Positions 36,698-62,930 of a stretch of 64,000 nt of DNA are shown piece after piece. The notes under the pieces are model-generated. The model was not told the DNA's origin. It made no database searches and was given only the letters and a program-made list of their open reading frames with translations. Origin of the DNA: Minisyncoccota bacterium (lineage in GTDB: Bacteria; Patescibacteriota; Minisyncoccia; UBA6257; 2-01-FULL-56-20); NCBI GenBank assembly GCA_035541435.1, contig DATKNL010000010.1, forward strand, positions 30,250 to 94,249, given 5' to 3'. The position numbers and the translations under genes are program-made. Numbering within the stretch: the stretch's first letter is position 1; each line of letters opens with the position of its first letter.

Positions 36698-38383
36698 CTA
36701 CCACGCGATCTCGCCGGTCACATCCTCGACTTCGCTCCAGGTCGTGATTCCTTGAAGGACCTTGAGGATGCCGTCCTGCTGCATCGTCACCATCTCCTGC
36801 CTGTCCGCAAGCTCGCGCAACGCCACCTCCGACGCCTCTTTGAGAATCGTCTTCTCAAGTTCGGGGCCGCCTTCAAGAAATTCGAAAATGCCGATCCGTC
36901 CCTTATAGCCTAGGCCGCCACACTCGCCGCATCCGACGGCCTCATACATTTCATACGCCTGAAACGGGGATTTGTCCACCCTCTTCGGAAGGCGCGCGAG
37001 GAAATTCTTAATTTTCGCCTCAAGCGCCGCATCGGGCGTCTTCTTTTTCTTACACGTTTTGCAGAGCACCCGCACGAGCCGCTGCGCGATGACGAGCGAA
37101 AGCGCCGGCCCGATGCTTACCGGCTTCACGCCGAGATTGATGAGGCGCGGAACCGCGCCCACGGCGTCGTTCGTGTGCAGTGTCGAGAGCACGAGGTGTC
37201 CGGTGAGCGCCGCCTGCAAGGCGATGTCGGCCGTATCAAGATCGCGGACCTCGCCCACGAGGATCACGTCCGGATCCTGGCGCACGATCGCGCGGAGCCC
37301 GTTCGCGAACGTATAGCCCGATTCCCCGTCGACCTGCGTCTGCTCGATGCCTTCGATGCGGTATTCGATCGGATCCTCGAGCGTGATGATCTTGATTTCG
37401 GGCTTGTTGATGGTCCTCAGGAACGCATAGAGCGTCGTCGTCTTGCCCGAACCCGTGGGCCCCGTGTTCAGGATCAGCCCGTTCGGGCGGGCGAGCTGCC
37501 GCTTCACGATATCGAGGCTGTCGGGGCGGAGCCCAAGATCGGCGATGGCAACCGTGGTCGCCGACGGGTCGAGGATGCGCATGACGATCGTCTCGCCGAA
37601 TTCGGCCGGGATCACCGAAACGCGCATCTCAACCTCCTTGCCCCCGAGCTCGATGGTGAACCGCCCGTCCTGCGCCGCGTCGCGGACGTTCAGCTTGAGT
37701 CCCGAAAGCAGCTTGATGCGCGACACGAATGCGCGGTACGTCTCAAGCGGCAAGCCGTCGAAGATGTCGTGCAGCAGGCCGTCGATGCGAAATCGGATCT
37801 TCGCCTTCTTTTCCTCGGCTTCGGTATGGACATCTGATGCGCGCATGCCCAAAGCCCCGGCAAGGATGATCTCGATCAGCGCGACTGGTGAGATGCGCGC
37901 CGGATCGTGGCTTGCGATCTCCTTGCCGATCGCATCGGTCGACGACAGGCGCTTGCGCAGGTCCTCGAGCCGGTCCTTCGAAATCTTCACCGTGCCGGTG
38001 ATCGCCTCGGCTTCCGGCCGCACGAACTGATAGAACCGCAACGCGGCCTCGAGGCTCGACGGGGAGATGACGACCTGCTTCACCGAATATTTCTTCCCTT
38101 CGAGGTCGCTCACAACCTTCTTCGCGGTTTCGAGGGACGGATTCACGACGCCGAGCGCGATCTTCGTTCCCTTTATTTCGATCGCAACCGCTTTCGCGTT
38201 GCGCGCGTCTTCTTCGGGGACGGCCCGGACGGCGTCAAGGGAAACGGGAACGGTGGCGAGGTTCGCATATGAAAGCCCGAGCTGGGCCGCAAGCCGTTCC
38301 GCGGCGCGCTCCTCGCCGTCACGGCGGAGTTTCACGATCCGCTCCTGAAGCTCATTCGGCTGTAAATCGTGCATTGCTATCAT
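36698..38383 (-). CDS. pilB: Type IV pilus/type II secretion assembly ATPase (PilB/GspE family)
   Basis: N-terminal GspE_N-like region. LILNTGPTGSGKTTTLYAFL Walker A. VRQDPDVILVGEVRD. C-terminal tetracysteine CKTCKKKK...CGECGGLGYKGRIG. Confidence 0.85.
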   Translation of the reverse strand: MIAMHDLQPNELQERIVKLRRDGEERAAERLAAQLGLSYANLATVPVSLDAVRAVPEEDARNAKAVAIEIKGTKIALGVVNPSLETAKKVVSDLEGKKYSVKQVVISPSSLEAALRFYQFVRPEAEAITGTVKISKDRLEDLRKRLSSTDAIGKEIASHDPARISPVALIEIILAGALGMRASDVHTEAEEKKAKIRFRIDGLLHDIFDGLPLETYRAFVSRIKLLSGLKLNVRDAAQDGRFTIELGGKEVEMRVSVIPAEFGETIVMRILDPSATTVAIADLGLRPDSLDIVKRQLARPNGLILNTGPTGSGKTTTLYAFLRTINKPEIKIITLEDPIEYRIEGIEQTQVDGESGYTFANGLRAIVRQDPDVILVGEVRDLDTADIALQAALTGHLVLSTLHTNDAVGAVPRLINLGVKPVSIGPALSLVIAQRLVRVLCKTCKKKKTPDAALEAKIKNFLARLPKRVDKSPFQAYEMYEAVGCGECGGLGYKGRIGIFEFLEGGPELEKTILKEASEVALRELADRQEMVTMQQDGILKVLQGITTWSEVEDVTGEIAW

Positions 38384-40647: not shown

Positions 40648-42816
40648 ATGCCTTCGCACTATCCCATAAAAGCCCGACGTTCGTGGTCTCGTATCGCGGC
40701 AGTCATAGGCATCGTCATCGCGGGAGCCATCGGCATCCTTCTCGTTGCCATCCTTTATTTTGCGAGTACGGTTCCGACCATCCAGGAAATCTCGAGCCAG
40801 CAGATCAGCCAGTCCACCAAAATCTATGACCGCACCGGGGCGGTCCTTTTATATCAGATCAGCAACGGCCCGACACGAACGGTCGTTTCATATGATCAGA
40901 TTCCGCAATCCCTCAAGGATGCGACCGTCGAACTGGAAGATGAGAATTTTTATAACGAACCCGGTTTCGACTGGAAGGGGATCGTTCGAGCCGTCTATGA
41001 AGACATCGTCCACCACTCTTTCGTTCAGGGCGGCTCAACCATCACGCAGCAGCTCGCGCGGACCGCATTCCTCACCCTCGATCAGACCCTTAGCCGAAAG
41101 CTCAAAGAGTTCGTCCTGGCGGTAAAGCTGAACAACTATTATTCAAAGGATCAGATTCTCGCCCTCTACCTGAACGAGGTCCCTTATGGTCCGAATATCG
41201 CAGGGGTCGAGGCGGCGAGCGAGGCTTATTTCGGGGTTCCGGTGACCCAGATCAACCTTGCCCAGGCGGCGCTCCTCGCATCGCTTCCCCAAGCACCCTC
41301 CTATTATTCGCCGTGGGGCAGTCACACCGACGAGCTGTTCGCCAGGCAGAAATTCACCCTGCAGAAGATGTATGCCGCGGGGAAAATCACCAAGCAGCAG
41401 CTGAATGACGCGTTGGCCTATAAGATCACCTTCCAACCCCAGTCCGCGAGCGGCATCGGCGGCGGCATCAAGGCGCCGCACTTCGTCATGGCCGTCGAGC
41501 AGTACCTCTATCAGAAATATGGCGAGAACATGGTTGACCGCGGCGGTCTCAAGGTCGTGACGACCCTCAATTGGCCGATGCAGCAGGCGGCCGAAACCGC
41601 GGTTGCCCAGGGTGTGGCCCGCGACAAGCAGCTCTACGACTCGAACAACGGCGCGCTTGTGGCGCAGGATCCGGTCACCGGCCAGGTTCTCGCGCTTGTA
41701 GGATCGGCCGACTATTTCGACACGTCGAACGAGGGCAACTTCGACGTCGCGACCCAGGGCCTCCGCCAGCCGGGATCGTCGCTTAAGCCGTTCGTCTATA
41801 TGACCGGCTTCCAGATGGGCTACACGCCCGATACGATCCTCTTCGACGTCCCCACCGAGTTCAGCACCGATCCCTCGTGTCCGACCATTCCGAACTTCAC
41901 AACGGCATCCAATGCGAAATGCTTCCACCCCCAGGATTTCGAGGGGACGTTTGCGGGCCCGATGACGATCCGCAACGCGCTCGCCCAATCAGTCAACGTC
42001 CCGGCCGTACAGATGCTTTATCTTGTGGGCGAGCAGACGGCGCTTCAGAACGTCGCCAACTTCGGAATCACGACCCTCACCCAACCGAACCAATACGGCC
42101 TCTCGCTCGTGCTTGGCGGCGGCGCCGTCCACCTTATCGACCTCACTGAGGCTTATTCGGTTCTTGCCGACGATGGCACGAAACACAACCAGACGATGGT
42201 GCTGCAGGTCCAGGACAACAACGGCAACACCCTCGAATCCTACGGCGACCAGACGTCCGCGGTCGCCGACACCCAATCGGTTCGCCTGGTGAACGACATC
42301 CTTTCCGACCCGAACGCTCGCGCGCCGCTCTTCCAGGCCAGCCAAAACCTCACCGTGTTCCCCGGCTATGACGTAGCGCTCAAGACGGGTACCTCGAACG
42401 ATTATCGCGACGCGTGGGCCATGGGATACACGCCATCGATCGTCGTCGGCGTCTGGGCGGGAAGAAACGACAACGTACCCATGAAGAAAAACGGCTCAAG
42501 CATCCTTGCGGCCGTTCCGATTTGGAGCGCATTCATGCAGCAGGCCCTCCCCATGGTGCCCAACACCACATTCACGCCGCCCGACCCGCCGTCGGAACCG
42601 AAACCGATCCTTGCCGGACAGGCCTTCGTCAACGGGCAGGTTCATTCGATCCTTTATTACGTCAACAAAACCGATCCGCTCGGACCGCCGCCCGCGAACC
42701 CGGCGAGCGATCCCCAGTTTCACAACTGGGAAACCGATCTTCAGGCGTGGGTCTCGAGAAATCCCGGCATACTCCAGCAGCAGGGCCCGGGTTCGAGCAC
42801 CAGCACGCAGGGATAG
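40648..42816 (+). CDS. Class A penicillin-binding protein (PBP1A; GT51 transglycosylase plus transpeptidase)
   Basis: N-terminal TM, GT51 motifs EDENFYNEPGFDW and GGSTITQQLAR. Transpeptidase SxxK (GSSLKP), SxN-like, KTGT (ALKTGTSNDYRDAWAMGY). Confidence 0.85.
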   Translation: MPSHYPIKARRSWSRIAAVIGIVIAGAIGILLVAILYFASTVPTIQEISSQQISQSTKIYDRTGAVLLYQISNGPTRTVVSYDQIPQSLKDATVELEDENFYNEPGFDWKGIVRAVYEDIVHHSFVQGGSTITQQLARTAFLTLDQTLSRKLKEFVLAVKLNNYYSKDQILALYLNEVPYGPNIAGVEAASEAYFGVPVTQINLAQAALLASLPQAPSYYSPWGSHTDELFARQKFTLQKMYAAGKITKQQLNDALAYKITFQPQSASGIGGGIKAPHFVMAVEQYLYQKYGENMVDRGGLKVVTTLNWPMQQAAETAVAQGVARDKQLYDSNNGALVAQDPVTGQVLALVGSADYFDTSNEGNFDVATQGLRQPGSSLKPFVYMTGFQMGYTPDTILFDVPTEFSTDPSCPTIPNFTTASNAKCFHPQDFEGTFAGPMTIRNALAQSVNVPAVQMLYLVGEQTALQNVANFGITTLTQPNQYGLSLVLGGGAVHLIDLTEAYSVLADDGTKHNQTMVLQVQDNNGNTLESYGDQTSAVADTQSVRLVNDILSDPNARAPLFQASQNLTVFPGYDVALKTGTSNDYRDAWAMGYTPSIVVGVWAGRNDNVPMKKNGSSILAAVPIWSAFMQQALPMVPNTTFTPPDPPSEPKPILAGQAFVNGQVHSILYYVNKTDPLGPPPANPASDPQFHNWETDLQAWVSRNPGILQQQGPGSSTSTQG

Positions 42817-44069: not shown

Positions 44070-45461
44070 TCAACTCTTGAATATCATATCCTTAATCATT
44101 AATATCTTCTGATTCAACCCTGGATTTCTATTGACCTCATGACTGATCTTTTCATAAGAATGGATCGCGGTGGTGTGATCCCTCCCCAATTTTTCACCAA
44201 TATACGGATAGGAAAGTTCCGAGATATCCCGAAGAAGATAGATGGCGATCTGCCGCGGCTCGACAATTTCTTTGCGCCGATTGTGACTCATAAGATCCTC
44301 GACGGAGATATTGAAGAATTCCGCGACCGTCTTGAGAATCTGTGCGTCGCTGACCCGCTTGGTGAGGTTTTGAGTCGATTTTTCAATGATTTCCGCGGCA
44401 ATATCCTCGGTGATCTCAGTCTGCTTCCGCTCTTCGTAGAATAGGATTTTTTTAAGGATGCCCTCGAGTTCGCGGATGTTCTTGCGGAGCTTTTTAGCGA
44501 TGATATCGATGACGGGGTCGCTAAGCTGCCGGTTCGTTTCCTGAAGTTTTGCCTTGATGATGGCGACCCGCGTTTCAAATTCCGGATAGGCGATGTCGGC
44601 GATAAGGCCGCCCTCAAAACGGGAGCGAAGCCGCTCTTCGAGGGTTGGAATCGACTGTGGGGGCCGATCAGAGGATATGATGATCTGCTTGTTCCCCTCA
44701 TAAAGGGCGTTGAAGGTGTGGAAGAATTCCTCTTCGGTCTTGTCTTTGCCGCCGATGAACTGAATGTCGTCGATGATCAGCACGTCGACATCGCGGTATT
44801 TCTTCTTGATGCTCTCGATGCGGTCGTTTCTGATGCCCCAGACGATATCGCGGGTGTATTGCTCGGATGCGACATATTTCGGACGGACCCTTCGCTGGTG
44901 TTTGACGAGGATTTCGTTGCCGATCGCCTGAATCAGGTGCGTCTTACCAAGGCCAACCCCTCCATAAATGAAGAACGGGTTGTATTTTTTGCCGATATTC
45001 TCGACGATGGCGCTTGCGGCTGCGAACGCGAGCTCGTTCGATGGGCCGACCACGAACGAAGCGAGGGTATATTTCGGGTTAAGGTTCGTTTCAGGGTCCG
45101 TTTTGAAGTCGAGGTCCATGACCTCGGCCTTTGCGAGCGTCGCGGTCGTGTTTTGAGGGACTGCGCGGGCTACGGCGGCCGCCTTGGCTCCGACGACGAA
45201 CTCGATCTTCTTCACCGAACTGTCCAGATTCCGCAGGATGCCGAGAAGATTCTTCTGGTATTTGTTCTCAACCCACTCTTTTGCGAAATTATTCGGCAGG
45301 GCGACATAGAGCGTGCCCTCCTTCTTGTCGATAAGCCTGCTGTTCTTCACCCAGGCAACGAAATGCGCTTTCGAAAGTTGGACTTCCATCTCACCAAGTG
45401 TCGATTGCCACATTTGATCAAGGTCCATGGTGAAATGATTCTTGTTTGGTTCATTATTCAT
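44070..45461 (-). CDS. dnaA: Chromosomal replication initiator DnaA
   Basis: Start at ATG 45461 ([10 protein letters not shown]). [23 protein letters not shown] Walker [15 protein letters not shown]-terminal DNA-binding domain ...[19 protein letters not shown]. Confidence 0.9.
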
Positions 45462-45593
45462 CGAAACACTTGTTCTTGTCAAAGCGACGACGGAAATCGT
45501 TTTGTGGATTATGTGTGCATAAGCCGTTTTGACCGTCGCGGAGCGATCCGGTCGGGGGTTGCTTTTCTTTCCGAACCTGGTACCATCATAGGC

Positions 45594-45728
45594 ATGTCGC
45601 TTACGTATAACCCCAAAAAGAAAAAGCGCCGCCGAACGCACGGTTTTTTAAATCGACAACGGACGGCAACGGGGCGAAAAGTCCTTTCGCGTCGCCGCGC
45701 GAAGGGCCGAAAGAAGCTGACGGTCTAG
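45594..45728 (+). CDS. rpmH: 50S ribosomal protein L34
   Basis: [44 protein letters not shown] matches the bL34 consensus. Lies within the longer track ORF 44718..45728. Confidence 0.85.
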
Positions 45729-48566: not shown

Positions 48567-49295
48567 TTATTGGCAGAGATAGTGCACGGTTTGGGGTGTC
48601 GTTCCCTGGGTGGCGACGTTCACGCAATGCAGGTTGGGCGCACAGGTTCCATAATGGCTGTTCGGCGGATCGCCGCCGCAGGTGTAGTCGGCCGGATTGG
48701 TCGAATGGCAGGCATAGCTCGGATGGGCGTAGTCGCCGTCGTTCGCGCAGATCTGGCCCTGGGGGCATTGTCCCGTCGAGCGCCCGCCGCAAAATACGGC
48801 GCCTGCCGCGTTTTCGCAGCTTCCATTCGTGCAGACGGTTCCCTGGGGGCAGGCCGCCGAGCATCCGCCGCCTTGCTGGTTTCCGCTTGTTGAAATTCCC
48901 TGGAGCGAGGGGAGGTTGAGCGTGGTGAGCGCCGGATCGATCGTGCTTAGGATGAGATAGGCTCCCGCGAGCAGCGCGACGCCGAGGATGGCGCCCCAAA
49001 GCCATTCCTTCGCCTCGCTCTGCATCGACGGATTGCCGCCGGAAGACATATACTTGATGCCGCCGAAGACCATGGCGCCGAACGCGGCAAGGCCGCCGAT
49101 CGCGAGGGCAAACTGATAGAAACTTTTAATGAAGCTTCCGGGATTGCAGTCCGAAGAGTTGGGGTTGGCGCACGAATCCGTTGCGCCGTTGATGGAGGGG
49201 AGGGAAACCGAGATGGCCGCGGCGCGCACCGATCCGGGAACGGTGACCGCCGCCATCAGGGCGGCGACCGAAAAGATGATGGATAGCGCCTTCAT
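48567..49295 (-). CDS. VirB2/TrbC-like pilin candidate with Cys-rich C-terminal extension
   Basis: Signal MKALSIIFSVAALMAAVTVPGSVRA. Two hydrophobic helices separated by a short polar loop (FIKSFYQFALAIGGLAAFGAMVFGG-IKYMSSGGNPSMQSEAKE-WLWGAILGVALLAGAYLILSTI), as in T4SS pilins. A ~110-aa C-terminal domain with 12 Cys follows (CPQGTVCTNGSCENAAGAVFCGG...). Confidence 0.5.
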   Translation of the reverse strand: MKALSIIFSVAALMAAVTVPGSVRAAAISVSLPSINGATDSCANPNSSDCNPGSFIKSFYQFALAIGGLAAFGAMVFGGIKYMSSGGNPSMQSEAKEWLWGAILGVALLAGAYLILSTIDPALTTLNLPSLQGISTSGNQQGGGCSAACPQGTVCTNGSCENAAGAVFCGGRSTGQCPQGQICANDGDYAHPSYACHSTNPADYTCGGDPPNSHYGTCAPNLHCVNVATQGTTPQTVHYLCQ

Positions 49296-49299: not shown

Positions 49300-50013
49300 T
49301 TATAAGGAGGGCTGATAAGTCAGATTTTCCGAAGCCGATGCCTGGGTCGAATCGCCGCCATTCGAAACCTGGACCGACGCGCTGATGGCGGTTCCTGCCG
49401 CGGTGCCTTTCGGCAGGGTGACCTGCGCCGTCATCGGATTCTCGGCGTTGCCACCGGTCTGGCCGTTGATGTTCCAGAAATAGCTAAGATTGTCCGATGA
49501 CGAGGTGTTGAAGAAATAGGGAATGGCGGCAAGCACGAAGGGATTCGCTGAAAATTGTCCGTTCGGATAGGGCGCCTCGATCACGGCCTTCGGACCCGCC
49601 ATGGGGATCGTGATCGAATGGATGAGGAACGAGCCGTTGTAGTTCGGAAGGTCGACTTCGAGCGTCATCGAGCCCGGAGCCTGGCCGAACGGCGGGAACG
49701 AGATGGTTTGCGCGCCGACGCCGCCGCCCAGCAGCGTGCCATTCAGATACCAATAGATCGTCTGACCCGAAAGGTTTGCAAGCGTCCCGTTGGCCCTGAG
49801 AAGCTCGATCGACGCCGTGATGCGGGATCCATAGGTCGGCAGCGCCTTGCCCGGATAGTTGGGCGGAACATAGCTGCCATTCGCCTTCCAGGTGATGAGG
49901 AACTGCGGCCCGGTTGCCGCATCGGCGCGCGATGCCGAAACGAAGAAGCCGCAGGCCGCGGCAATAAGAAGAGCGGCGACGCCAAACATGAACGCTAAAG
50001 TGCGGTTCGCCAT
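49300..50013 (-). CDS. Secreted hypothetical protein (T4SS-like operon)
   Basis: Start at ATG 50013 (MANRTLAFMFGVAALLIAAACGFFVSASRADA signal). The track's upstream extension is Arg-rich shadow. Several NGS/NGT sequons. Confidence 0.45.
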   Translation of the reverse strand: MANRTLAFMFGVAALLIAAACGFFVSASRADAATGPQFLITWKANGSYVPPNYPGKALPTYGSRITASIELLRANGTLANLSGQTIYWYLNGTLLGGGVGAQTISFPPFGQAPGSMTLEVDLPNYNGSFLIHSITIPMAGPKAVIEAPYPNGQFSANPFVLAAIPYFFNTSSSDNLSYFWNINGQTGGNAENPMTAQVTLPKGTAAGTAISASVQVSNGGDSTQASASENLTYQPSL

Positions 50014-50047
50014 ATCCGTACCTTTATTGTACCAAATGAAATCGCGA

Positions 50048-50713
50048 TCAGGGTGCGGGACGATTCTCGTTCCCGGGCTTTTCGGGTTCCGGCATCTGCT
50101 CGAACTCCTCTTCCTGCGCGACCTCGACCGGATTCCGCTCCTCGGGAGGCGTGAGCGCCTCTTCGGCGGCGCGTTCCCGCTCGTCCGATTCGTTTTCCTG
50201 GTCGTCCCCCTGTTCGTCTTGCTGTGCGACGCCCCGTTGTCCGCGCCTCGCTCCGGCCGGCCGCGCGCCTTCGGCGGCCTGGACGGTCTGCTGCTCGGCC
50301 GTTTCGGCGAGCTTTTCCGTGGCGGCATTCTCGGCGGCTCCTTCGGCGGCAGCCAATTCCCCGCCTCCTTCGAGCGCCGCTCCCTTTCTAATAATCTTAC
50401 TGGCTAAAGATTTCGGATTATTGGCGGCACGAATTCCGATGAGGACGGCAGCCGTGCGGCCGGGGATGAAGAACAGCTGGAGGACATCGTCGATGAATTG
50501 CAGGATCGCCGGCCAGCCGAATCCGACTTTGATGACGAAGACGCTGGTGAAAAATCCGTCGAACAGCAAGTTGATCGGCTCCATGATGGCTTCGCCGGGC
50601 AGGCCGACGACGCTTGCGGCGAACAGGTCGAATACGACCTCGAGCGCGTCGTTTGCAACCGCGAGCAGGATCAGGGCGACGATCCAGAGGGTGTCGAAGG
50701 GTTTTTCTTCCAT
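50048..50713 (-). CDS. Membrane protein with acidic C-terminal tail (T4SS-like operon)
   Basis: 221 aa. TMs LWIVALILLAVA and FFTSVFVIKVGFGWPAIL. Glu-rich C-terminal tail. Confidence 0.45.
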   Translation of the reverse strand: MEEKPFDTLWIVALILLAVANDALEVVFDLFAASVVGLPGEAIMEPINLLFDGFFTSVFVIKVGFGWPAILQFIDDVLQLFFIPGRTAAVLIGIRAANNPKSLASKIIRKGAALEGGGELAAAEGAAENAATEKLAETAEQQTVQAAEGARPAGARRGQRGVAQQDEQGDDQENESDERERAAEEALTPPEERNPVEVAQEEEFEQMPEPEKPGNENRPAP

Positions 50714-50729: not shown

Positions 50730-52463
50730 CTAGAGTCCCTGCGCCTTTTCCTCGAGCAGCTGTTCGGGATTCGTCGTGATGATCTGGTCCTCGAAATAGG
50801 AGGGGACGATCTGGATCGCGACGTGCCGCTTGCCGGCGAAGAAGATGCCGGTGCCCACTTCGGCCCCGAGCAGGAAGTTCTTTTCGGCCTCGGTGAGGTC
50901 GAACGCCTTTGCGACGATGTCGATCGTCGCCGGCGCCTGCTTGAGGAGCAGCTGGATCGACGAGTTCGTGATGATCGGCCGGCCGAGGGGCGCGCGCAGG
51001 AAGTCCTCGACGTCCTGCGTGATGGTCGAGATGCCGAGATAATATTTGCGGGCGCGCTTCACGAGGTCGTGCAGGAATTTGGCGCTGTCGTCGTTCTTCA
51101 TCATGATCCATGCCTCGTCGATGAAGAGCAGGCGCTTGGCAAGCTTCGCGCGGATCAGGCTCCAGATGAAGTTCAGCACGAGGAACATGCCGATCGGGCG
51201 CAGCTCCTCTTCGAGGTCGCGGATCGAGAAGACGATGAGGCGGTTCGTGACGTCGATGTTCGTCGGCTGGTTGAGGAATCCTGCAAAGCTCCCCTTGGTG
51301 TATTTATAGAGCTTCTCGGCGAGGTCCTTGCCGCCTTCCATGCCGCGGAGGACGGTCTCGAGGTCGCCCAAGAGCGGCGGTTCCTTGCCGGCGAAGTCCC
51401 CGTCGGCCACGATGTCGCGCGACGCATAGGTCTCGGTGATCGCCCGGTCAAGGAGCGCGTCCTCTTCGGGGGTGAGCGCGCCGAGCATCAGCTTGAGGAG
51501 GCTTGCGAGCGTCACGACATGCGACCGCAGCACGTCCGACGGCGATTCGTTCTCGGGGATCAGCGGTACGTCGAACGGGTTGATGTGCTCGTGGGACGAG
51601 AGCGAGATGTTGAACATGCTGCCGCCGAACGTCTTCGCCAGGCGCTCGTATTCGTTTTCCGGATCGATCACGAGCACCATGTCGACGCCCGCCATGAGCG
51701 AGCGGATGATCTCGAGCTTCGTCGTGTACGATTTTCCGGCGCCCGATTTCGCGAAGACCACCTGGTTCGCGTTCTCGAGCGAGAAGCGGTCGAAGATGAC
51801 GAGGTTGTTGTTGTGCAGGTTGATGCCGTACATGATCCCTTCGTTCGACGAGAGGTCCTCCGAGACGAACGGGAAGAACGACGAGATCGGCCCCGTGTTC
51901 ATCGGCGTGTAGATCTGCAGCTTGTCGGCGTCGAGCGGCAGGACCGAGAACAGCCCTTCGAGCTGGCTGAAGAGCGCCGGCTTCAGATAGATGAGCTTCG
52001 CCTCCATCATGCTCGTGAGCTTGCTTTCGAGCTTGACGAGCTCGTCCTCGTTGTCGGCATAGATCGTGATATAGACGCCCGTGTCGAAGAGCTTCTCTTC
52101 GGACTGCTGCAGCGAGTCGCGCAGGTTCTCGATGTCCTGGACGGCGGTCTCGAGCATCGGGTTCCTCACGAGCCCCTTCTCCTGCTCGTCGGCGATCTGC
52201 GATTCGAGTTGCCCGGCCTTCTTCCTCAGGTTTTTGAGCGCCACGCCGGTATCGATCGGATTCACATAGATCGAGACGTCGAACAGGTTCGGCAGGTTGA
52301 TGAGCGGCTCGAACCATCCGGTCGAAAGGTAGCGCGGATAGGACAGCACGAAGAACGTCTTCGCGAGCTTGTCGCCGATCTTCAGGTAGTTCGGAAAGAC
52401 CTGCGCGCCGGCGGGGGCGATGATCTTCTTGATATCCTTGAAATTGGCCGATTCTTCGGGCAT
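50730..52463 (-). CDS. VirB4/TraE/PrgJ-family T4SS ATPase, ATPase (C-terminal) portion
   Basis: Walker A FAKSGAGKSYTTK, Walker B LLFIDEAWIMM. Conserved VirB4 central region YPRYLSTGWFEPLINLPNLFDVSIY. Confidence 0.8.
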   Translation of the reverse strand: MPEESANFKDIKKIIAPAGAQVFPNYLKIGDKLAKTFFVLSYPRYLSTGWFEPLINLPNLFDVSIYVNPIDTGVALKNLRKKAGQLESQIADEQEKGLVRNPMLETAVQDIENLRDSLQQSEEKLFDTGVYITIYADNEDELVKLESKLTSMMEAKLIYLKPALFSQLEGLFSVLPLDADKLQIYTPMNTGPISSFFPFVSEDLSSNEGIMYGINLHNNNLVIFDRFSLENANQVVFAKSGAGKSYTTKLEIIRSLMAGVDMVLVIDPENEYERLAKTFGGSMFNISLSSHEHINPFDVPLIPENESPSDVLRSHVVTLASLLKLMLGALTPEEDALLDRAITETYASRDIVADGDFAGKEPPLLGDLETVLRGMEGGKDLAEKLYKYTKGSFAGFLNQPTNIDVTNRLIVFSIRDLEEELRPIGMFLVLNFIWSLIRAKLAKRLLFIDEAWIMMKNDDSAKFLHDLVKRARKYYLGISTITQDVEDFLRAPLGRPIITNSSIQLLLKQAPATIDIVAKAFDLTEAEKNFLLGAEVGTGIFFAGKRHVAIQIVPSYFEDQIITTNPEQLLEEKAQGL

Positions 52464-52475
52464 GGCTCCTCTATA

Positions 52476-53174
52476 TTATTGCTGATCGGCGCGGGCGGCC
52501 GCGGCTCCCGTTCCCCGTTCGACGGTCTGGGGATTATAGAAATTATAGAAAAGCTCGACGAGCTCCTGGTTGCCGAGCGCCGTCGCCTCAAGCCCGATGG
52601 CAAGGAGGCCGGTGACGGCCTGGTTGACCCGCTGGTTCAGTTGGCCGACGTTCTCTTTGAAGTCTTGCTCGGCCTGTTCTTCCGATCCCGCAGCAGCGGC
52701 GGGTCCGTTTTTTTTGCCGCCGCCGAAGAGCCCGCCCAGGATGCCCTGGCTTGCGCTCTTGATGACCGATCCCAGGGGATAGAACGGGACGACGACCAGG
52801 AACATCTTTTCCATGATCGCGTTCTTTGCGACGAATCCCTTGATGAACTCGGCGTATTCGTCGATCTGGCTCTGGAGGATCGGCGACGTCTCAACCTGCT
52901 TGCGGCGCATAAGGGTCTCGACGTACTTGTCGATGTTCACCTTGCGGGAATGGATCAGGACCTGCAACGGGAAGTCGATGGAGTTCAGAAAGGTCTGATA
53001 GGTCTGGGTGATGATCGTCTGTTCGGTTTCGGACTTCAGCGCGAAGTTCACTCCGCCAACCAGGATGATCTGGCGAAGGCTGCCGTCCTTAAGGACGACC
53101 ACGTCGTCGCGGATTTCCTTGATGTCGACGAGGTCGAGCGAGCTGCCGGTATCCTGCCGTGAAGGTGCCGCCAT
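52476..53174 (-). CDS. VirB4-family N-terminal domain encoded as a separate ORF
   Basis: LDLVDIKEIRDDVVVLKDGSLRQIILVGGVNFALKSETEQTIITQTYQTFLNSIDFPLQVLIHSRKVN matches the N-terminal region of Gram-positive VirB4 homologues. Ends at TAA 12 nt before the ATPase ORF, which is in a different frame. Confidence 0.55.
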   Translation of the reverse strand: MAAPSRQDTGSSLDLVDIKEIRDDVVVLKDGSLRQIILVGGVNFALKSETEQTIITQTYQTFLNSIDFPLQVLIHSRKVNIDKYVETLMRRKQVETSPILQSQIDEYAEFIKGFVAKNAIMEKMFLVVVPFYPLGSVIKSASQGILGGLFGGGKKNGPAAAAGSEEQAEQDFKENVGQLNQRVNQAVTGLLAIGLEATALGNQELVELFYNFYNPQTVERGTGAAAARADQQ

Positions 53175-53230: not shown

Positions 53231-53815
53231 TCAGCGGTAATCGACGCGCCGCGCCGCCGCACGGTCCCCCGTCGGACGGGTGAAAATGTGATAGCGCTCG
53301 TTCATTTTGCGCTCAAGGAACTGCCGGTCCGAGGTCTTCTTGGTCGCCTCGCCCGTCTGGACGCTTTGCAGCTTCTTATGAAGCGACGATCCGGCGATGA
53401 TATCGGCGATCTGGTCCAGTGAGATGCCCTTTTCCTTTTTCTCGGCGACTACCGGCGCCGGCGTTGCTTTGGGCGGGAGGACGGCCCGCGAAGATGACGG
53501 CGGTGCGGATTTTTTCTGCGGAAGCGAAACCGTCGGATGCTCGGGCTGCCAGACGTAGGTCTGGGGCTTCCAATAATAGCTCACGGCGGCAAGCACGACC
53601 TGCGGCAGCGGCCGGCCCTCGATCTTCACGAACGAAAGCGCGAGCGACGACCCGATGAGGACGACTGCGGCGATGATGAAAAGCCAGAACGAAACGAAGA
53701 AATAAAAGAAGGCGCTTATGAAGCACGCGACGCCCACGAAGGCGAATTGGCGCAACGAGAGCGGACCTATGACTTTGTCGTCGGTCTCGATGAATTGCGG
53801 GACCTGAAACTGCAT
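53231..53815 (-). CDS. PrgI/VirB3-like small membrane protein
   Basis: MQFQVPQFIETDDKVIGPLSLRQFAFVGVACFISAFFYFFVSFWLFIIAAVVLIGSSL: N-terminal motif plus a TM hairpin as in PrgI-family proteins. Position immediately upstream of VirB4. Confidence 0.5.
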   Translation of the reverse strand: MQFQVPQFIETDDKVIGPLSLRQFAFVGVACFISAFFYFFVSFWLFIIAAVVLIGSSLALSFVKIEGRPLPQVVLAAVSYYWKPQTYVWQPEHPTVSLPQKKSAPPSSSRAVLPPKATPAPVVAEKKEKGISLDQIADIIAGSSLHKKLQSVQTGEATKKTSDRQFLERKMNERYHIFTRPTGDRAAARRVDYR

Positions 53816-53818: not shown

Positions 53819-55612
53819 TTAAGTATAGTCCTTCCGGATCGGCTTTGAAGGGCCGGCGGCCGGATTGGTCAGCTTCGGTTGGGGCGTCGGAGGGGCCGGC
53901 GGCTTCGGTGTCGCGGTCGGCGCCGCGGGCGCAACCGGTGTCGCAGGTGCGACGGGTGTTGGCATTGCGGCCGTCGCGGGCGCGTGCGGTGGTGTGGCAG
54001 GTGCCACGGGCGCCGTGGGTGCGACGGGTGCGGTCGGTGCCGCACTCGTCATTTTCGCAGCACCTGGCATGACAGTCGGCTTCGGCGGCATGGGTGGCAG
54101 CGGGGGGAGGGGCGAGACGGGCGTAGCTGGCGGCGTAAAGGTGGGCGCAGGTGCGGTCGTCGCCTTAGGCGACGTCGATTGCGGCGGCGTGGGACCCGAA
54201 GGTTGCGATGCCGGCGGCGGCGTGGGGCCTGCGGGACGTTCGGTGACTCCGATCGTGGCGACGGGCACCTTCGGCGCGTTCGACGTCGAGGCGGCCGAAG
54301 GCACGCCAGATGTCCCCGGCTTTGCCGTCGTCATTTCGGTAACCGTCCGCTCGCCCGGCATGGGCGGCGTCTCTTTGAAATTGCTGTAATGCGGCAGCTT
54401 GGTCGTGCCGGAAGCCGGCTTCGCGGATGCGCCCGCAAGCGATCCGAGTTCGAGGACGGCCGCCTTCACGACATCCTTCGGCTTGATTTCTTCGAGCGAG
54501 ATTTCCGCGCCGCCGCCCGGACGCGCAAGATGGAAATCGTTCTTCGCGCCGATCGACGAGAATTCCGCATCGTGATGCAGCATGACGGGAGGCGGTGCGG
54601 CTGCAGCCGGCTGAGCGTCCGATGGCGATGATGACGACGGGTGCGCGTCCGATGACGAGGTCATCTTCGACCAGCCAGGCTGCGAGAAGGGTGACGCTTT
54701 CGGCGCCGCGGGAGCCGGCATCGCGGCCTGCGGTGCGCCCTTTGCGGTCGACGACAGCGCCGCTGCCGCCTCGGAAATCGATGCGGGCTTTGCCGGCGGG
54801 GTCGCAGGCGATGCCGGCGTCGACGGCTTGGATGATGACGTCGACATGAGCGACGATGCCGTTACGAACGAAGGCTTCGTTCCCGTCGACGGCGAAGGGC
54901 TTGCGGCTGGCTGTCCGCCGCTTCCCGCGATGGATGAGAGCACGGCAGAGACCGGTTTTGCGGCAGGTCCCGCGGCAACGGCATGTTGATTGCCCTGCTG
55001 CATTCCCTGCGGCTGTCCCGCCCCACCGCTACTGCCTCCCTGAGGTTTCGGCGGCATCGCGGGCGATCCGCTGATCTGACTGAGCACGGTTTTGCCGGCA
55101 TCAAGGGTCGCGGTGGTCACGGTGACGGACGGTTTGGGTGCGGGCGTGGTCGCGGGCGCCGCCTTGCCCGGGATAAGCGACGCGGTCTGCGTCGACATGG
55201 GGACGGCGTCGTGGACGATGTCGTTCATCATGCGGGGTGCCGGATGCGCGCCATTCCCTGCAAGAGGACTCGCGACCGGTACGGCGCCGGCCGGATTGTA
55301 GATCTTGTCGATCTCCTGTCGGATCGGAGCGAACAATCTTTCGTTCAGGGCGTTTTGAATATCGCCCGACGTCTTCGCGTCGAGCGCGATTTGTGTGACA
55401 AGTTCTGCTGCGAGGTCTTCGGGGTGAAGGAATCCCATCAGGACCCATCCGACAAGCTTGGCGACTACATAAATTTTTTCTTCGGGAACGTTTTCTCGCT
55501 GGCAGGTCTTCCAAACGAAATCAGAACCGGCTTCCGAGACGAGGGCTTCTCGCAGGACATCGGGGAGGGCGTCCCACCGCTCCAGGGCTTGGTTTGTGCT
55601 GATTGTCGTCAT
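53819..55612 (-). CDS. Protein with ~130-aa N-terminal globular domain and ~460-aa Pro/Ala/Thr/Ser-rich disordered region (T4SS-like operon)
   Basis: No signal peptide or TM. Repeats such as APTAPVAPTAPVAPATP. The DNA carries imperfect GGTGCGACGGGTG-type repeats around 53900-54050. Confidence 0.5.
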   Translation of the reverse strand: MTTISTNQALERWDALPDVLREALVSEAGSDFVWKTCQRENVPEEKIYVVAKLVGWVLMGFLHPEDLAAELVTQIALDAKTSGDIQNALNERLFAPIRQEIDKIYNPAGAVPVASPLAGNGAHPAPRMMNDIVHDAVPMSTQTASLIPGKAAPATTPAPKPSVTVTTATLDAGKTVLSQISGSPAMPPKPQGGSSGGAGQPQGMQQGNQHAVAAGPAAKPVSAVLSSIAGSGGQPAASPSPSTGTKPSFVTASSLMSTSSSKPSTPASPATPPAKPASISEAAAALSSTAKGAPQAAMPAPAAPKASPFSQPGWSKMTSSSDAHPSSSSPSDAQPAAAAPPPVMLHHDAEFSSIGAKNDFHLARPGGGAEISLEEIKPKDVVKAAVLELGSLAGASAKPASGTTKLPHYSNFKETPPMPGERTVTEMTTAKPGTSGVPSAASTSNAPKVPVATIGVTERPAGPTPPPASQPSGPTPPQSTSPKATTAPAPTFTPPATPVSPLPPLPPMPPKPTVMPGAAKMTSAAPTAPVAPTAPVAPATPPHAPATAAMPTPVAPATPVAPAAPTATPKPPAPPTPQPKLTNPAAGPSKPIRKDYT

Positions 55613-55615: not shown

Positions 55616-57928
55616 CTATGAGTGAGCGCCACCTTCGACGGCAGAGGCGGGAGGCGCAGATGTTGTACCCGTTCCGGGATCCTGAAGGACAGCGTTGTAG
55701 TCGAAGGCCTGTTTCCTGGCGCGGCGTGCCGTTTCGAGATTCTCCTCTTCCCGGGTCATCGTTTGCCTGAGCGCATCCTGCTCCTTCTTGAGAATTTCGA
55801 TCTGAGCTTTCCCGGCGTCGATCTGGGTTTGGATGGCCTTCTTGTCGGCCTCGCTTTCGGTTTGGGCAATTTGCTTGGTGAGTCTTTCGATCTGATTTTC
55901 CTGTTCCTTGATAGCCTGGGCCTTTTCCGCGCTCTTAACGAAGAACGCCCGTTGAGACATTTCCGTTTGGATGACGTCGTCATAGACTCGGTTAAACGTC
56001 TGAAGCTGAGCCCCCTTCAGTTTAGAGATGGCGCTTGCGGGAAGATGAGGTTGGCGCAGGGCCATGTTTTTAAGCAACGACCGAGTTTTGAAGTCGTCCT
56101 TCCCGAAAACGTCATTGACGTTTGCCTTAGCGATGTCGCTCTTCAACAGCTTGTCGACGAATTTGCCCGATTCCTCGTCGATCTTGGGCTGCGCCTTGGT
56201 GCGAACATTCTCGAATTCACGAATTGCCGCCTCGATAGCTTGGGCATTTCCTGATTTCTTGGCGTTGGAAACCTTGGCTTCTGCTTCGATAACGGGCTGC
56301 ATGGCTGCGCGCATCTCGGCGTTGTTACCGATGGCCTTGTCGGCCTCTTCCTGGTCGTGCTTCCATCCATATCGCTCGATGGCTGGCCGGTTGGCATCCA
56401 TCCATGCGCCAACTGTCTGGTTGCGTACCATGGTGTCCGGCGCGAGCTTACCCTTTTCGCGAAGTTTCGAGATGTGCGCCAGGGTTTCCTCCATGCTCAT
56501 CCTCCCCTTCAGGGCCTCCTTGATCGATTCGGGGTTGTCAGAGACATGTTTTTTTGCCTCTTCGACCATCTTGCTGTTCGTGATATAAGGTTCCATGGCG
56601 CGGCCTGCCTTGTTGGCTACGGTGCCGATCAGAGGAATCTTGGCGAGCGTCTGGTTTGATTTGAGCCCTTTCGATAATTTGTCTGCTGCCGGTTTCCCGA
56701 TCCGGACAGCCGCTTTTTTGGTCTGCTTCGCGGCGAATCCCTTCACCTGGCCGCCGGCCCATTTCGCGCCGCTCACGACCGCTTCGGATCCTCCGAGCGA
56801 GAGGGCCTGCGCGGCAAAGAGGCCGCCGAGCGCGAGGCCGACGAGCACGATGTCGTTGAGGGCCTGCTGCGTCCATCCGCCATGCGCGGTGCTTGCGGCG
56901 CTTGCAGCATAGGGGTTGTTCGGGTTTTGCACGGCAGCCGCATCGATGTTCGCAGCCGGAACGGTCGGTGATCCGTTGAGCGCGACCGCCGAAAGCATGG
57001 CGACATACAGGAAGAACGTCACGAGCGCGGGAAAAAGCGCCCATTTGATGAACAGCCCCCACCACTTCGCGAAATAATCGAACTTCGGGAAGATCCATGT
57101 GAGCCAGGCAAGTGGCAATACGATGAGAAGGAATACGAGATAGACATAGCGAACGACGAGCATGATGCCGACGATGAGCAGGGTGAAGACGACGATGCCC
57201 AGAAAGATCGTCGAAAAGAAACCGGCGGTGACGGCCTGCATGAACGTCGTCGCCCCCGAAGAGTCGTTGCCTTTCGTCATATTGGCGGCAGCATTGCATA
57301 CGAGCGCCGTTTCAGGATCCAGATCGCAGTCATTCGAAGCCTGCTGGGTGTTGCCGGCCGTCTGGGCGGGAACAATGTCCGGAGGAGCCTGGAATTTCGA
57401 TACTCCGAAGTCGGTGGCCATAAGCGTTGCAACGTTATTGTCCCCTCCCATGGCACCAACGAAATAATTCGAAAGATTATCGGCCAAGCCGACGATCGGT
57501 CCCGTTATGACAAGCCCGAAATTGACAAGGATCGCCATGAGGACGAGCTTCCACAGGGATTGCTTGATGCCATAGCTTTCGCTGCGCAGGATGGTCGCGA
57601 TCGCTATGATGATGATCCCAAGGACGAATCCGAGGTTCGCGATGGCGAGTGCTATCGAAAACCCCTGTTGGACCGTGGCGGAGTTGAACGCGCTTTCGTC
57701 AAGGTGAATGCCGAGGTTGATGATCTGCGCACTCAGGTCGACAAGCAGAAAGAGGAAGCTGTTGATGGCGGTGCTTATGAAAAGCACGGCGCTCGTAACC
57801 GGACTGGTGTACCAGTTGACCATGCTCGGGTTCGAACTTGCCGCCCATGTTCCGCGCGGAAGGGCGATCATCGTTCCCGTCAGGGCGGTCAGGATCAGGC
57901 CGGCTTTCTTGGTGAAAAACTTCTTCAT
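55616..57928 (-). CDS. VirB6/TrbL-like polytopic T4SS membrane protein with long C-terminal coiled-coil region
   Basis: Signal peptide plus at least 6 TMs (FLFLLVDLSAQIINLGI, GFVLGIIIIAIATIL, LVLMAILVNFGLVITGPIVGL, FFSTIFLGIVVFTLLIVGIMLVV, VFLLIVLPLAWLTWIFP, WALFPALVTFFLYVAMLSAVAL). A ~380-aa hydrophilic Lys/Glu/Gln-rich tail follows. Confidence 0.6.
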   Translation of the reverse strand: MKKFFTKKAGLILTALTGTMIALPRGTWAASSNPSMVNWYTSPVTSAVLFISTAINSFLFLLVDLSAQIINLGIHLDESAFNSATVQQGFSIALAIANLGFVLGIIIIAIATILRSESYGIKQSLWKLVLMAILVNFGLVITGPIVGLADNLSNYFVGAMGGDNNVATLMATDFGVSKFQAPPDIVPAQTAGNTQQASNDCDLDPETALVCNAAANMTKGNDSSGATTFMQAVTAGFFSTIFLGIVVFTLLIVGIMLVVRYVYLVFLLIVLPLAWLTWIFPKFDYFAKWWGLFIKWALFPALVTFFLYVAMLSAVALNGSPTVPAANIDAAAVQNPNNPYAASAASTAHGGWTQQALNDIVLVGLALGGLFAAQALSLGGSEAVVSGAKWAGGQVKGFAAKQTKKAAVRIGKPAADKLSKGLKSNQTLAKIPLIGTVANKAGRAMEPYITNSKMVEEAKKHVSDNPESIKEALKGRMSMEETLAHISKLREKGKLAPDTMVRNQTVGAWMDANRPAIERYGWKHDQEEADKAIGNNAEMRAAMQPVIEAEAKVSNAKKSGNAQAIEAAIREFENVRTKAQPKIDEESGKFVDKLLKSDIAKANVNDVFGKDDFKTRSLLKNMALRQPHLPASAISKLKGAQLQTFNRVYDDVIQTEMSQRAFFVKSAEKAQAIKEQENQIERLTKQIAQTESEADKKAIQTQIDAGKAQIEILKKEQDALRQTMTREEENLETARRARKQAFDYNAVLQDPGTGTTSAPPASAVEGGAHS

Positions 57929-60163: not shown

Positions 60164-60934
60164 TCAGAAAAAAAGTTTTGCGATCGTGGCAACGTTGTCG
60201 ATTGCAAGGTCCTGCGGCCGCTCCGAGGCGTTGATTCCTGCTTGGGCGAGCGTTTTTTCGATAAATTCGCGCGATTTGTCGGCGTGAGCCGCCACGTTGT
60301 TGAGAATCGTCTTGCGCGGTTGCGAGAAAACGGCCCTGACGGCGGAATAATACCGATCCTGACCGACGTCGCCATCGTTTTCCCTGAGCGCGAGAAGGAC
60401 AACGGCCGAATCAACCTCGGGCGGCGGCGAAAAATCGCCTTTCGGAACCCGTGCGATGATCGTCGCATCGGCCCAGAACTGCACGCTTGCCGCGAGCCGA
60501 TTCATGTGCGGAGGCTTGGCCGAGAGGCGTTCGGCGACCTCGTCCTGCACCATGAGGATGGTCCGTTCCGGCTTGTGCGGAAGCTCGCTCACGAGGCGCA
60601 GGAGCTTCCCGGTGATGTAATAAGGGATGTTGCCGACGAGCTTCCATGAGGCCCCGCCCATTTCGCTGACGGCAGAAGGAAGAAGCCTGAGGGCGTCGCC
60701 TTCCTTGACGGTCACCGCGGGGAGGTCGCGTACGAGTGCGGCGGCAAGCCGCGCGTCCTTTTCGAGGACCGTGATATTCGCCGCACCCGCCGATGCTTTG
60801 ACGATGCGGCGCGTGAGCTCGCCGTGTCCCGATCCGATTTCGATCACGGCATCCCCCGCTCCGACGCCAAGCGCGGACGCGATCTTGTCCGCGACCGCGG
60901 CGTTGCGAAGGAAGTGTTGGCCAAGTCGTTTCAT
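60164..60934 (-). CDS. rsmA: 16S rRNA (adenine1518/1519-N6)-dimethyltransferase RsmA/KsgA
   Basis: Start at ATG 60934 (MKRLGQHFLRN). SAM motif VIEIGSGHGELT; NIPYYIT. Confidence 0.85.
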   Translation of the reverse strand: MKRLGQHFLRNAAVADKIASALGVGAGDAVIEIGSGHGELTRRIVKASAGAANITVLEKDARLAAALVRDLPAVTVKEGDALRLLPSAVSEMGGASWKLVGNIPYYITGKLLRLVSELPHKPERTILMVQDEVAERLSAKPPHMNRLAASVQFWADATIIARVPKGDFSPPPEVDSAVVLLALRENDGDVGQDRYYSAVRAVFSQPRKTILNNVAAHADKSREFIEKTLAQAGINASERPQDLAIDNVATIAKLFF

Positions 60935-60935
60935 A

Positions 60936-62930
60936 TCAGTCGAGAAATACGGAACGCTCTTCGAACCCCTCAGATTCGTCGAAACCATCGGAGTCGCCCG
61001 CGCCGAGGCCGCGCCGGCCGCGGGTGCCGTCACCATCATCATACGACGAGGCGCTCCCCGCGGCGAACGTGACGCAGTCCTCGGGAATTTCCGAAATGAA
61101 CCGCGACGGGATTCCATAAAAGCTGATTGCGAGGTTCTTCCGCGCCCGCGTCATTGCGACATACATCAGTCGCCGCTCCTCTTCGAGCGACGCGTCGTCG
61201 TCGAGCGAGCGGCCGTGCGGCAGGAGTCCCTCGGCGGCTCCCGCGATGAAGACCGTATCGAACTCGAGTCCTTTCGCAAGATGAATGGTCATAAGGCTCA
61301 CTTCCTCCCCCCGGTTTTTCTGTTCGTTCACGTCGTCGGTCGCCTGAAGCAGGCTGAGCTTTTCGAGGAAGTCCGGCAGCGATTCGAATTCTCCGGCAAA
61401 CGCAACGAGTTCCGCTATGTTCTCTTCGCGCTCGTCGGAGTTGATGAAGTTATCTTCAAGATATTCGACGTAGTTGAACGTTTCAAGAAAAAGCTTGAGC
61501 GCGTCGACGGGTTTGATCGCGGGACCGCCGTCGTCCGCGGCGGTCGGGCCGCCCTGGAAGGCCGATTTTATAAGCCTTGCGCGGAATTCGGCGAATCGGC
61601 GCTTCGTGAGGTTTTTCTCAAGCCGGTCCTTCGCGACCTCGTCCTTGTCGTTCGAGATGTAGCGCAATGCGGCCATCGCATCTTTCACTTCGCGCCGTTC
61701 ATAGAACTTGAGGCCGCCGAAAATGCGATAGGGAATGTCGCGACGGATGAGCGCCTGTTCGATCGCGCGCGACTGCGCGTTCGTGCGATAGAGGATGGCG
61801 ATCTCTTCGGCCGCATCCTGCCGTTCGCCGCGGTTCCCCTGCTCCTCGCGCCGCAGGTCGTCGCGTACCCGCCGCTTGCCGATCTCCTGCGCGATCCATT
61901 CCGCCTCTTCGTTCTCGCCCCAGGCCTCGAAGAGCGCGATGCGCTCGCCGTCGGGATTCTTGGTCCAGAGGTTCTTCGGCGTGCGGAACGAGTTGTTCTT
62001 CACGACGCCGGCCGCCGCGCGGATGATCGTCCCGGTCGAGCGGTAGTTCTCTTCCAAAAAATGCACCGAGGCGCCCTTCCAGACCTTGTCGAAGTCGAGG
62101 AACGTCTTGATGTTCGCGTAGCGCCAGCTATAGATCGTCTGCTCGTCATCGCCTACGACGCTCAGGTTGCGATGCCCTTCGGCGAGAAGCGTGATGAACT
62201 CGCACTGCTTCGGGTTGATGTCCTGATATTCGTCGACCAGGATCGCGTCGAACATCGATTGATATTTTCTGAGCACGTTCGGATGCTGCCTGAAGATCGC
62301 GACCGGCTTCTCGATCAGGTCGTCAAAGTCGAACGCGTTATTGCGCGCGAGTGCCGCCTCGTAGTGCTCGTAAACCTTCACGACATTCCTCGAGGTCCCA
62401 TCGGTTGCGGCCCGCAGCTCGTCGATGGCTCCGTCTTTGTTCTTGATCTCGGAAATCCTCTGCCCGAAAAACGCCGGCGTCTCCTTCTTGTTCAGCCGCT
62501 GCCGGTTGCCGAATGCCCCGTCCTCTTTCGGGGGCTTGGGCAGGACCGCCTTGACCGCCTTTTTGAGCAGGTCGAACGAATCGTGATCGTCAAAGATGGC
62601 GAAATTCGGACTGCGGCCAAGAAGCCGGCACTCCTTTCTGAGGATCCTCGCGCCCAGGGAGTGAAAGGTGCTGATCAGGGGTCCCGGAATGCTCACCCGG
62701 TTCGCCATCTCCTTTGCCGCCTTGTTCGTGAAAGTGATGGCACAGATTCGTTCGGGGCTCATCCCTGACTCGATAAGATGGACGATCCGGCTCGTGAGCG
62801 TCTTGGTTTTCCCGGTCCCAGCGCCGGCCACTATTAAAAGAGGCCCGTTTTTAGCCTTCGCTGCGGCTGACTGGGCCGGATTCATGGGGAAAATCGGTGG
62901 ATTTGCCCTATTTTGATTGCTGCTCGTCAT
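60936..62930 (-). CDS. pcrA: ATP-dependent DNA helicase PcrA/UvrD family
   Basis: GPLLIVAGAGTGKTKTLTSRI (motif I), ILVDEYQD (motif II), FTVTFSKAAKEM-type motif Ia, C-terminal VAMTRARKNL (motif VI). Confidence 0.9.
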   Translation of the reverse strand: MTSSNQNRANPPIFPMNPAQSAAAKAKNGPLLIVAGAGTGKTKTLTSRIVHLIESGMSPERICAITFTNKAAKEMANRVSIPGPLISTFHSLGARILRKECRLLGRSPNFAIFDDHDSFDLLKKAVKAVLPKPPKEDGAFGNRQRLNKKETPAFFGQRISEIKNKDGAIDELRAATDGTSRNVVKVYEHYEAALARNNAFDFDDLIEKPVAIFRQHPNVLRKYQSMFDAILVDEYQDINPKQCEFITLLAEGHRNLSVVGDDEQTIYSWRYANIKTFLDFDKVWKGASVHFLEENYRSTGTIIRAAAGVVKNNSFRTPKNLWTKNPDGERIALFEAWGENEEAEWIAQEIGKRRVRDDLRREEQGNRGERQDAAEEIAILYRTNAQSRAIEQALIRRDIPYRIFGGLKFYERREVKDAMAALRYISNDKDEVAKDRLEKNLTKRRFAEFRARLIKSAFQGGPTAADDGGPAIKPVDALKLFLETFNYVEYLEDNFINSDEREENIAELVAFAGEFESLPDFLEKLSLLQATDDVNEQKNRGEEVSLMTIHLAKGLEFDTVFIAGAAEGLLPHGRSLDDDASLEEERRLMYVAMTRARKNLAISFYGIPSRFISEIPEDCVTFAAGSASSYDDGDGTRGRRGLGAGDSDGFDESEGFEERSVFLD

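Follow-up and report, generated by a model that had tools for sequence, protein, structure and literature searches.

Is a VirB4 homologue that is read as two consecutive open reading frames (ORFs) a damaged gene, or a natural pair of genes that together make one protein? The question is raised by a 64,000-nucleotide stretch of DNA (contig DATKNL010000010.1 of assembly GCA_035541435.1, positions 30,250 to 94,249; hereafter the window), in which positions 50730-53174 hold a homologue of VirB4, an ATPase of type IV secretion systems (T4SSs), in two parts. For proteins encoded in the window, identical entries come from a Candidatus Paceibacterota metagenome-assembled genome (MAG). We find it highly probable that the locus carries a natural, conserved two-gene VirB4 within a chromosomal T4SS locus of a Candidatus Paceibacterota genome (Patescibacteria, or candidate phyla radiation, CPR). 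A preliminary description, made from the sequence alone, had offered three possibilities: a natural two-polypeptide VirB4, a recent frameshift pseudogenisation, and an assembly error. The first is now strongly supported, as hundreds of relatives are split in the same manner and the arrangement matches both trsD/trsE of plasmid pSK41 and the Patescibacteria T4SSs reported previously (PMC12102498).

Two ORFs and one VirB4

The two ORFs are separated by a single in-frame stop codon. Both lie on the reverse strand. The upstream gene, which is TrsD-like (52476..53174, (-); 232 amino acids, aa), begins with ATG and ends with TAA, and its product contains LDLVDIKEIRDDVVVLKDGSLRQIILVGGVNFALKSETEQ. The downstream gene encodes a short-form VirB4 ATPase (50730..52463, (-); 577 aa) and runs from its own ATG to a TAG. 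Between them lies a spacer of 12 nucleotides (nt; 52464..52475, (-); TATAGAGGAGCC), in frame with both ORFs. The junction on the coding strand is therefore TAA-TATAGAGGAGCC-ATG, with the TAA at 52476-52478. In all of this the preliminary description was accurate: the coordinates and lengths, the TAA and the 12 nt that follow it, and the separate ATG of an ATPase ORF with Walker A and B motifs. Its statement that the ORFs lie in different frames is wrong. Their offset (53174 minus 52463) is 711, or 3 x 237, and a single-frame translation of 50730-53174 runs through the junction (ARADQQ, stop, YRGAMPEES), with the TAA as the sole interruption. Thus, the ORFs are divided by an in-frame stop and not by a frameshift. 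Neighbouring genes end with TAA, TAG and TGA alike, which indicates that the TAA is not recoded. No terminator-like site was detected between the two ORFs in a promoter and terminator scan; over the whole cluster, counts of promoters and terminators were at chance level and uninformative.

A third ORF of 779 aa (50823..53162, (+)) lies antisense to the two VirB4 genes and spans their junction; its frame is the codon-aligned antisense one. In the sense genes, the G+C content at third codon positions is 0.80-0.90, and codons TTA, CTA and TCA are absent from the ATPase ORF and occur once in the small ORF. Their near-absence leaves the antisense frame without stops, and so keeps it open. The 779-aa ORF is a shadow ORF, not a gene.

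The 577-aa polypeptide carries the ATPase domain of VirB4 together with part of the N-terminal domain. Its match to NF045971, the model of CD1110-family VirB4, exceeds the curated threshold (390.6 bits, cutoff 325, E 1.4e-116) and spans only profile positions 185-734 of 752. Pfam matches are P-loop_TraG, AAA_10 and DUF87. In a phmmer search against the PDB, aa 219-563 (50775..51809, (-)) align to the C-terminal domain of Thermoanaerobacter VirB4 (4AG5/4AG6, E 9e-42). By motif position, Walker A is SGAGKS (aa 240-245; 51729-51746, (-)) and Walker B is LLFIDEAW (aa 445-452; 51108-51131, (-)). Upstream of the part aligned to 4AG5, aa 1-218 (51810..52463, (-)) correspond to the C-terminal half of the VirB4 N-terminal domain, and aa 79-177 match positions 275-373 of 375 of Pfam TraC_F_IV. 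The N-terminal domain is not complete on this polypeptide, which begins at about position 177-185 of the 752 in the CD1110 profile. Consequently, the labels “N-domain” and “ATPase” of the preliminary description hold in part: the RecA-like ATPase domain is indeed on the large ORF, but about 218 aa of N-terminal-domain sequence are there too. Because this sequence remains on the 577-aa ORF, the break falls inside the VirB4 N-terminal domain. In TrwK, this domain comprises residues 15-400 (PMC9259494), which likewise places the break within it rather than at its border with the C-terminal domain.

The 232-aa polypeptide matches the first part of VirB4. Its matches fall on N-terminal profile positions (CD1110 12-115, TIGR00929 19-116, VirB4_plasma 103-218), and its end matches positions 130-177 of TraC_F_IV, which represents the VirB4 N-terminal region. 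The earlier reading of 52476-53174 as similar to the VirB4 N-terminal region is thus borne out by several VirB4 profiles, as well as by a TrsD/TraD profile. All listed homologues of the small ORF carry a precomputed assignment to PF26593 (TraC-like). A family profile of 41 small-ORF sequences also aligns by hhalign to pSK41 TrsD (columns 8-204 with residues 33-217, E 9.3e-6, probability 83%). A sequence search of the PDB returned no match for the small ORF; fold comparison with solved VirB4 alone succeeded, and identified the fold of the TrwK N-terminal domain. On the strength of these profile and fold matches, the 232-aa gene is assigned to the TrsD family, and its product is predicted to be a soluble polypeptide of its own that makes up the first half of the N-terminal domain of VirB4.

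The profile matches of the two ORFs indicate that they are complementary and colinear. Taken in order, the small ORF and then the ATPase ORF cover positions 12-115 and 185-734 of CD1110, and positions 19-116 and 253-724 of TIGR00929. A fused relative, P0249, aligns to TIGR00929 in one stretch (18-725), and fused relatives hold each segment once, colinear with full-length VirB4. By profile alignment, the TrsD-like gene and the short VirB4 are identified as complementary halves, not paralogues. A paralogue is nevertheless the alternative that survives best: the 232-aa protein would be an extra, accessory copy of the VirB4 N-terminus, and the 577-aa protein a self-sufficient VirB4. This would suit the published view of TrsD as only a remote homologue of the N-terminal portion of VirB4, without an assigned function (PMC12102498). 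However, the 577-aa ORF starts beyond the segment matched by the small ORF and does not contain it, and the fused relatives carry no second copy of either segment. We therefore regard a paralogue as improbable.

Conservation of the split and alternative explanations

The two-gene layout is conserved across relatives. Of 690 homologues of the small ORF, the top 120, mostly from Candidatus Paceibacterota MAGs, all measure 224-257 aa (61-74% identity); for the ATPase ORF, the top 120 homologues all fall within 567-596 aa (81-93% identity). When 1.84 billion cluster representatives were searched exhaustively with HMMER, 1,987 clusters matched, and the best 150 of their representatives include a single full-length fusion (P0249, 797 aa). 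We compared the junction in 81 loci, namely 80 from different GTDB species and the P0249 locus. Comparison with orthologous loci had been proposed in the preliminary description, where a single fused ORF in relatives was taken as a sign against a natural split. We find that 74 of the 81 loci are split, and that only six are truly fused (L001, L010, L011, L016, L020, and L025), these being nested among split relatives. One further apparent fusion, L015, was discarded, as its junction (~4700-4900) crosses a block of masked N that is translated as X.

Split junctions vary in gap, frame and stop codon. These were tallied over 74 pairs, which include the window's own pair; L032 (split, with an 8-nt overlap) stands outside the tallies. 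Nine pairs overlap by 4-14 nt (e.g., ATGGCTGA), and most pairs are 0-28 nt apart. Relative frames 0, 1 and 2 occur in 20, 31 and 23 pairs, respectively, and the upstream gene ends with TAA in 47, TGA in 14 and TAG in 13. With no preferred frame among split loci, the in-frame layout in the window can be put down to chance. The variable frames and gaps also mean that neither readthrough nor frameshifting can be a general mechanism. In two loci, L053 (~4664-5114) and L076 (~4619-5137), an unrelated gene, for a TIGR02436 four-helix-bundle protein, lies between the trsD-like gene and virB4. These are unrelated Patescibacteria loci, and the inserted gene is weakly Avd-like; TIGR02436 is the family that occurs in 23S rRNA intervening sequences.

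Recent pseudogenisation, in which a nonsense mutation (e.g., CAA to TAA after DQQ) cut a formerly fused VirB4, is a poorer candidate than a paralogue. It would readily explain why the ORFs share a frame with only a TAA and four codons between them, and why two Gln codons precede the stop; fused relatives do exist, at about 790 aa. Yet every one of the closest relatives (identity of 58-74% for the small ORF and of 87-93% for the ATPase) is split, with differing frames and with gaps of +8, -8, +5, and +4 nt. Furthermore, both halves are strongly conserved, the downstream ATG lies where orthologues start, and fused forms are a nested minority. Thus, we consider a nonsense mutation very unlikely. 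The frameshift form of this explanation, raised in the preliminary description, is rejected outright, given that there is no frameshift and that the split is conserved in hundreds of assemblies.

Programmed stop-codon readthrough, or another form of recoding that yields a fused full-length VirB4, is less credible again. Although the pair is in frame in this genome, an in-frame layout is not enriched among the tallied pairs (20 in frame versus 54 out of frame), and many loci overlap in ATGnnTGA style or carry an inserted gene. The TAA is moreover an ordinary stop of the neighbouring genes, and in Escherichia coli a T directly after TAA makes for strong termination, which weighs against readthrough. 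An assembly or sequencing error that gave a false stop codon merits just as little belief: the window does come from a MAG, but the same layout recurs in hundreds of assemblies, made independently in different projects, and an error would have had to produce not only a stop but also an ATG and a plausible ribosome-binding site, all precisely where the breakpoint is conserved. It is this conservation across independent assemblies that practically excludes both pseudogenisation and assembly error, leaving a natural two-gene VirB4.

Working, history and known counterparts of the pair

A natural two-gene VirB4 could work as a rebuilt N-terminal domain attached to its ATPase. We propose that one transcript carries both genes and that each is translated separately. 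Translation of the second would begin from its own ATG, which lies 12 nt past the TAA, probably through coupled re-initiation aided by a Shine-Dalgarno-like GAGGAG (52466-52471). In the cryo-electron microscopy structure of the R388 system, VirB3 wraps the N-terminal domain of VirB4 (15-400), VirB4 dimerises via the same domain, and VirB8 tails contact it (PMC9259494). Taking R388 as a guide, the membrane-proximal N-terminal domain of VirB4 may be completed here by association of the TrsD-like protein with aa 1-218 of the ATPase. The rebuilt domain would then dock on the PrgI/VirB3-like protein and mediate VirB4 oligomerisation, while the ATPase half would power assembly and secretion.

Several observations weigh against a two-gene VirB4 that works in this way. 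The GAGGAG lies 2 nt 5' of the ATPase ATG, which is tighter than usual for a Shine-Dalgarno sequence; its contribution to re-initiation is uncertain for this reason, and an obvious Shine-Dalgarno sequence is absent from most relatives' junctions. The association of the two polypeptides, and their docking on PrgI, are inferred from the R388 structure by analogy only. An AlphaFold2 model of fused P0249, built from a 44-row alignment, reached a pLDDT of 54.6 and a pTM of 0.38, so that the packing of the halves is unreadable in it. The TrsD/TraD model NF041427, which was built on Firmicutes plasmid proteins, matches aa 18-91 only of the small ORF (E 8e-10), at 38.9 bits against a curated cutoff of 200; by this measure, as by the hhalign probability given above, the homology to TrsD is remote. 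Lastly, the split in this particular genome is read from assembled MAG sequence alone.

The two-gene arrangement of TrsD and VirB4 is already known, both in Patescibacteria and in staphylococcal plasmids. Patescibacteria hold 2,272 reported TrsD homologues, 1,664 of which adjoin virB4, and T4SSs of Patescibacteria/Paceibacteria are often found near dnaA, dnaN and ksgA (Quiñonero-Coronel et al. 2025, PMC12102498). The window is an instance of this system: it shares a TrsD gene by virB4, a PrgI/VirB3 protein, a VirB2-like PF18895 pilin, and dnaA, dnaN and ksgA nearby, and nothing substantive differs. The Patescibacteria T4SS is essential in Candidatus Southlakia epibionticum (Wang et al. 2023, PMC10633639), where the TrsD homologue is also listed as essential (PMC12102498).

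The Staphylococcus plasmids pSK41 and pGO1 (subclass pGO1 of MPF_FATA) show the same gene order, with a VirB3-like protein, a TrsD of about 230 aa and a DUF87/VirB4 protein, TrsE (also named TraD and TraE). In pSK41, a trsD of 227 aa and a trsE of 672 aa are separated by a 14-nt gap, compared with 232 aa, 577 aa and a 12-nt gap in the window. TrsD and the small ORF are colinear to the same C-terminal motif, yet remote (23% identity), and TrsE is about 95 aa longer than the window ATPase. In pSK41 the system serves plasmid conjugation and includes a relaxase and a coupling protein, whereas the window locus is chromosomal, lies by dnaA and has a pilin gene. A tblastn search of plasmids with the small ORF gave remote matches only (<=33% identity), and pSK41/pGO1 were not among them.

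Other VirB4 systems differ in where their gene boundaries lie. Full-length VirB4 (R388 TrwK, Agrobacterium VirB4, and the Gram-positive CD1110-/PrgJ-type) is one polypeptide of about 750-820 aa; the two window ORFs cover the whole profile colinearly, but with the N-terminal domain divided over two polypeptides. Fusions of VirB3 with VirB4, known in some Campylobacter and Actinobacillus, likewise indicate that gene boundaries around the VirB4 N-terminus are labile (PMC12102498). These go the opposite way, however, joining VirB4 to VirB3, whereas the window shows fission within VirB4; no such fusions were found in Patescibacteria (PMC12102498).

The fused relatives indicate how the split may have changed over time. 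Measured from FYxxYNP, the motif that closes the TrsD-like part, up to xSYPR, a motif early in the ATPase, fused proteins have 59-60 aa (90 aa in L025), and the corresponding segments in split pairs sum to 65-72 aa. Judged by these linker lengths, the fusions resemble simple loss of stop and start within a variable linker. In a rough neighbour-joining tree of the ATPase part, fused loci occur in two places (L001/L011/L025 and L016/L010/L020), nested in each among split relatives, and the more distant clades are all split. Such a topology favours secondary re-fusion, in a few Paceibacteria lineages, over a fused ancestor.

The breakpoint is shared with pSK41. TrsE aa 30, aa 37 of a Miltoncostaea plasmid VirB4 and aa 9 of the window ATPase all fall on CD1110 position 183-185, and TrsE aa 48 pairs with aa 25 of the window ATPase. 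The small ORF and pSK41 TrsD also have a C-terminal motif in common (FYxxYNP/FYALYDY; ELVELFYNFYNP versus EYLNQFYALYDY). Since TrsE and the window ATPase start at the same profile position, the breakpoint is the one of trsD/trsE; the split is thus probably ancient, and suggests either a fission that occurred once or one linker that tolerates breaks. The identical breakpoint in both groups is also the ground for a more specific proposal, which we make tentatively and rate a little below even: that the pair is an obligate two-subunit VirB4, which arose by one fission before the T4SS of Patescibacteria and the Gram-positive systems of pGO1/pSK41 type diverged, and was re-fused independently in at least two Paceibacteria lineages. 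Were this the case, the N-terminal half-domain would act as a detachable adaptor, made in its own dose, by which attachment of the ATPase to VirB3/PrgI is controlled.

The explicit picture of complementary halves plus re-fusion appears not to be stated in the literature found. No papers were retrieved under the name “split VirB4”, the main text of Guglielmini 2014 does not discuss TrsD, and the pIP501 and pELF papers hold nothing on TraD as a VirB4 fragment. TrsD and VirB4 are not explicitly described as complementary halves in PMC12102498, nor are fused variants reported there. What our analysis adds is marginally new, and consists of profile evidence that the halves are complementary, a breakpoint within the N-terminal domain that is shared with pSK41, and natural fused variants. 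In practice, pairs of ~230-aa and ~580-aa genes in CPR genomes are to be annotated as one functional VirB4, and not as a pseudogene or frameshift; the window pair currently has the NCBI product names “hypothetical protein” and “DUF87/ATP-binding protein”. Natural fused and split forms also offer a comparison for the role of the VirB4 N-terminal half-domain in a T4SS that is essential for epibiotic growth in Patescibacteria.

Genomic context of the locus

The T4SS cluster lies at the chromosomal replication-origin region, as indicated by the flanking genes dnaN (42820-43932; DNA_pol3_beta domains in Pfam), dnaA (44070..45641, (-); Pfam Bac_DnaA, DnaA_N and Bac_DnaA_C) and ksgA (60164..61117). 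The gene order is ksgA, a PKD protein, a 770-aa protein, a 597-aa protein, PrgI, the TrsD-like gene, VirB4, membrane proteins, the pilin, dnaA, and dnaN. Directly upstream of the TrsD-like gene is the PrgI-family (VirB3-like) membrane protein (53231..53815, (-)), which matches Pfam PF12666 above the cutoff (E 4.8e-9) and has strong hydrophobic segments. Directly upstream of PrgI, in turn, is the 597-aa protein (53819..55612, (-)), a low-complexity sequence rich in Pro, Ala, Thr and Ser with a structured N-terminus of about 110 aa; it has no match in Pfam or NCBIfam. The 770-aa protein (55616..57928, (-)) is possibly a VirB6-like membrane component, a suggestion that comes from a weak match far below the cutoff (E 4.6e-4) to NCBIfam NF046089, the CD3337/EF1877 mobilome membrane protein. 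No relaxase or coupling protein was found among the ORFs scanned in 36.7-61.1 kb, several of which have no family match.

Downstream of VirB4 lies a T4SS pilin-like (VirB2-like) protein (48567..49295, (-)), which matches Pfam PF18895 (T4SS_pilin) above the cutoff (E 3e-8). The match covers aa 55-118 and is followed by a Cys- and Gly-rich C-terminal extension of about 120 aa, unusual for VirB2-type pilins. Two same-strand ORFs, one of 342 aa (49300..50328, (-)) and one at 50048..50713 (-), overlap by about 280 nt. The 342-aa ORF probably starts further downstream, at a Met before a signal-peptide-like segment (MANRTLAFMFGVAALLIAAA...), and its basic N-terminal extension is likely untranslated.

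Just past dnaN are a class A penicillin-binding protein (40648..42816, (+)) and a PilB/GspE-type T2SSE ATPase with an MshEN domain, the motor of a type IV pilus (36698..38383, (-)). The G+C content of the window is 55-66%, which is high for a Patescibacteria genome, and its sole tRNA is a tRNA-Arg(CCG) at 23275-23347(-).

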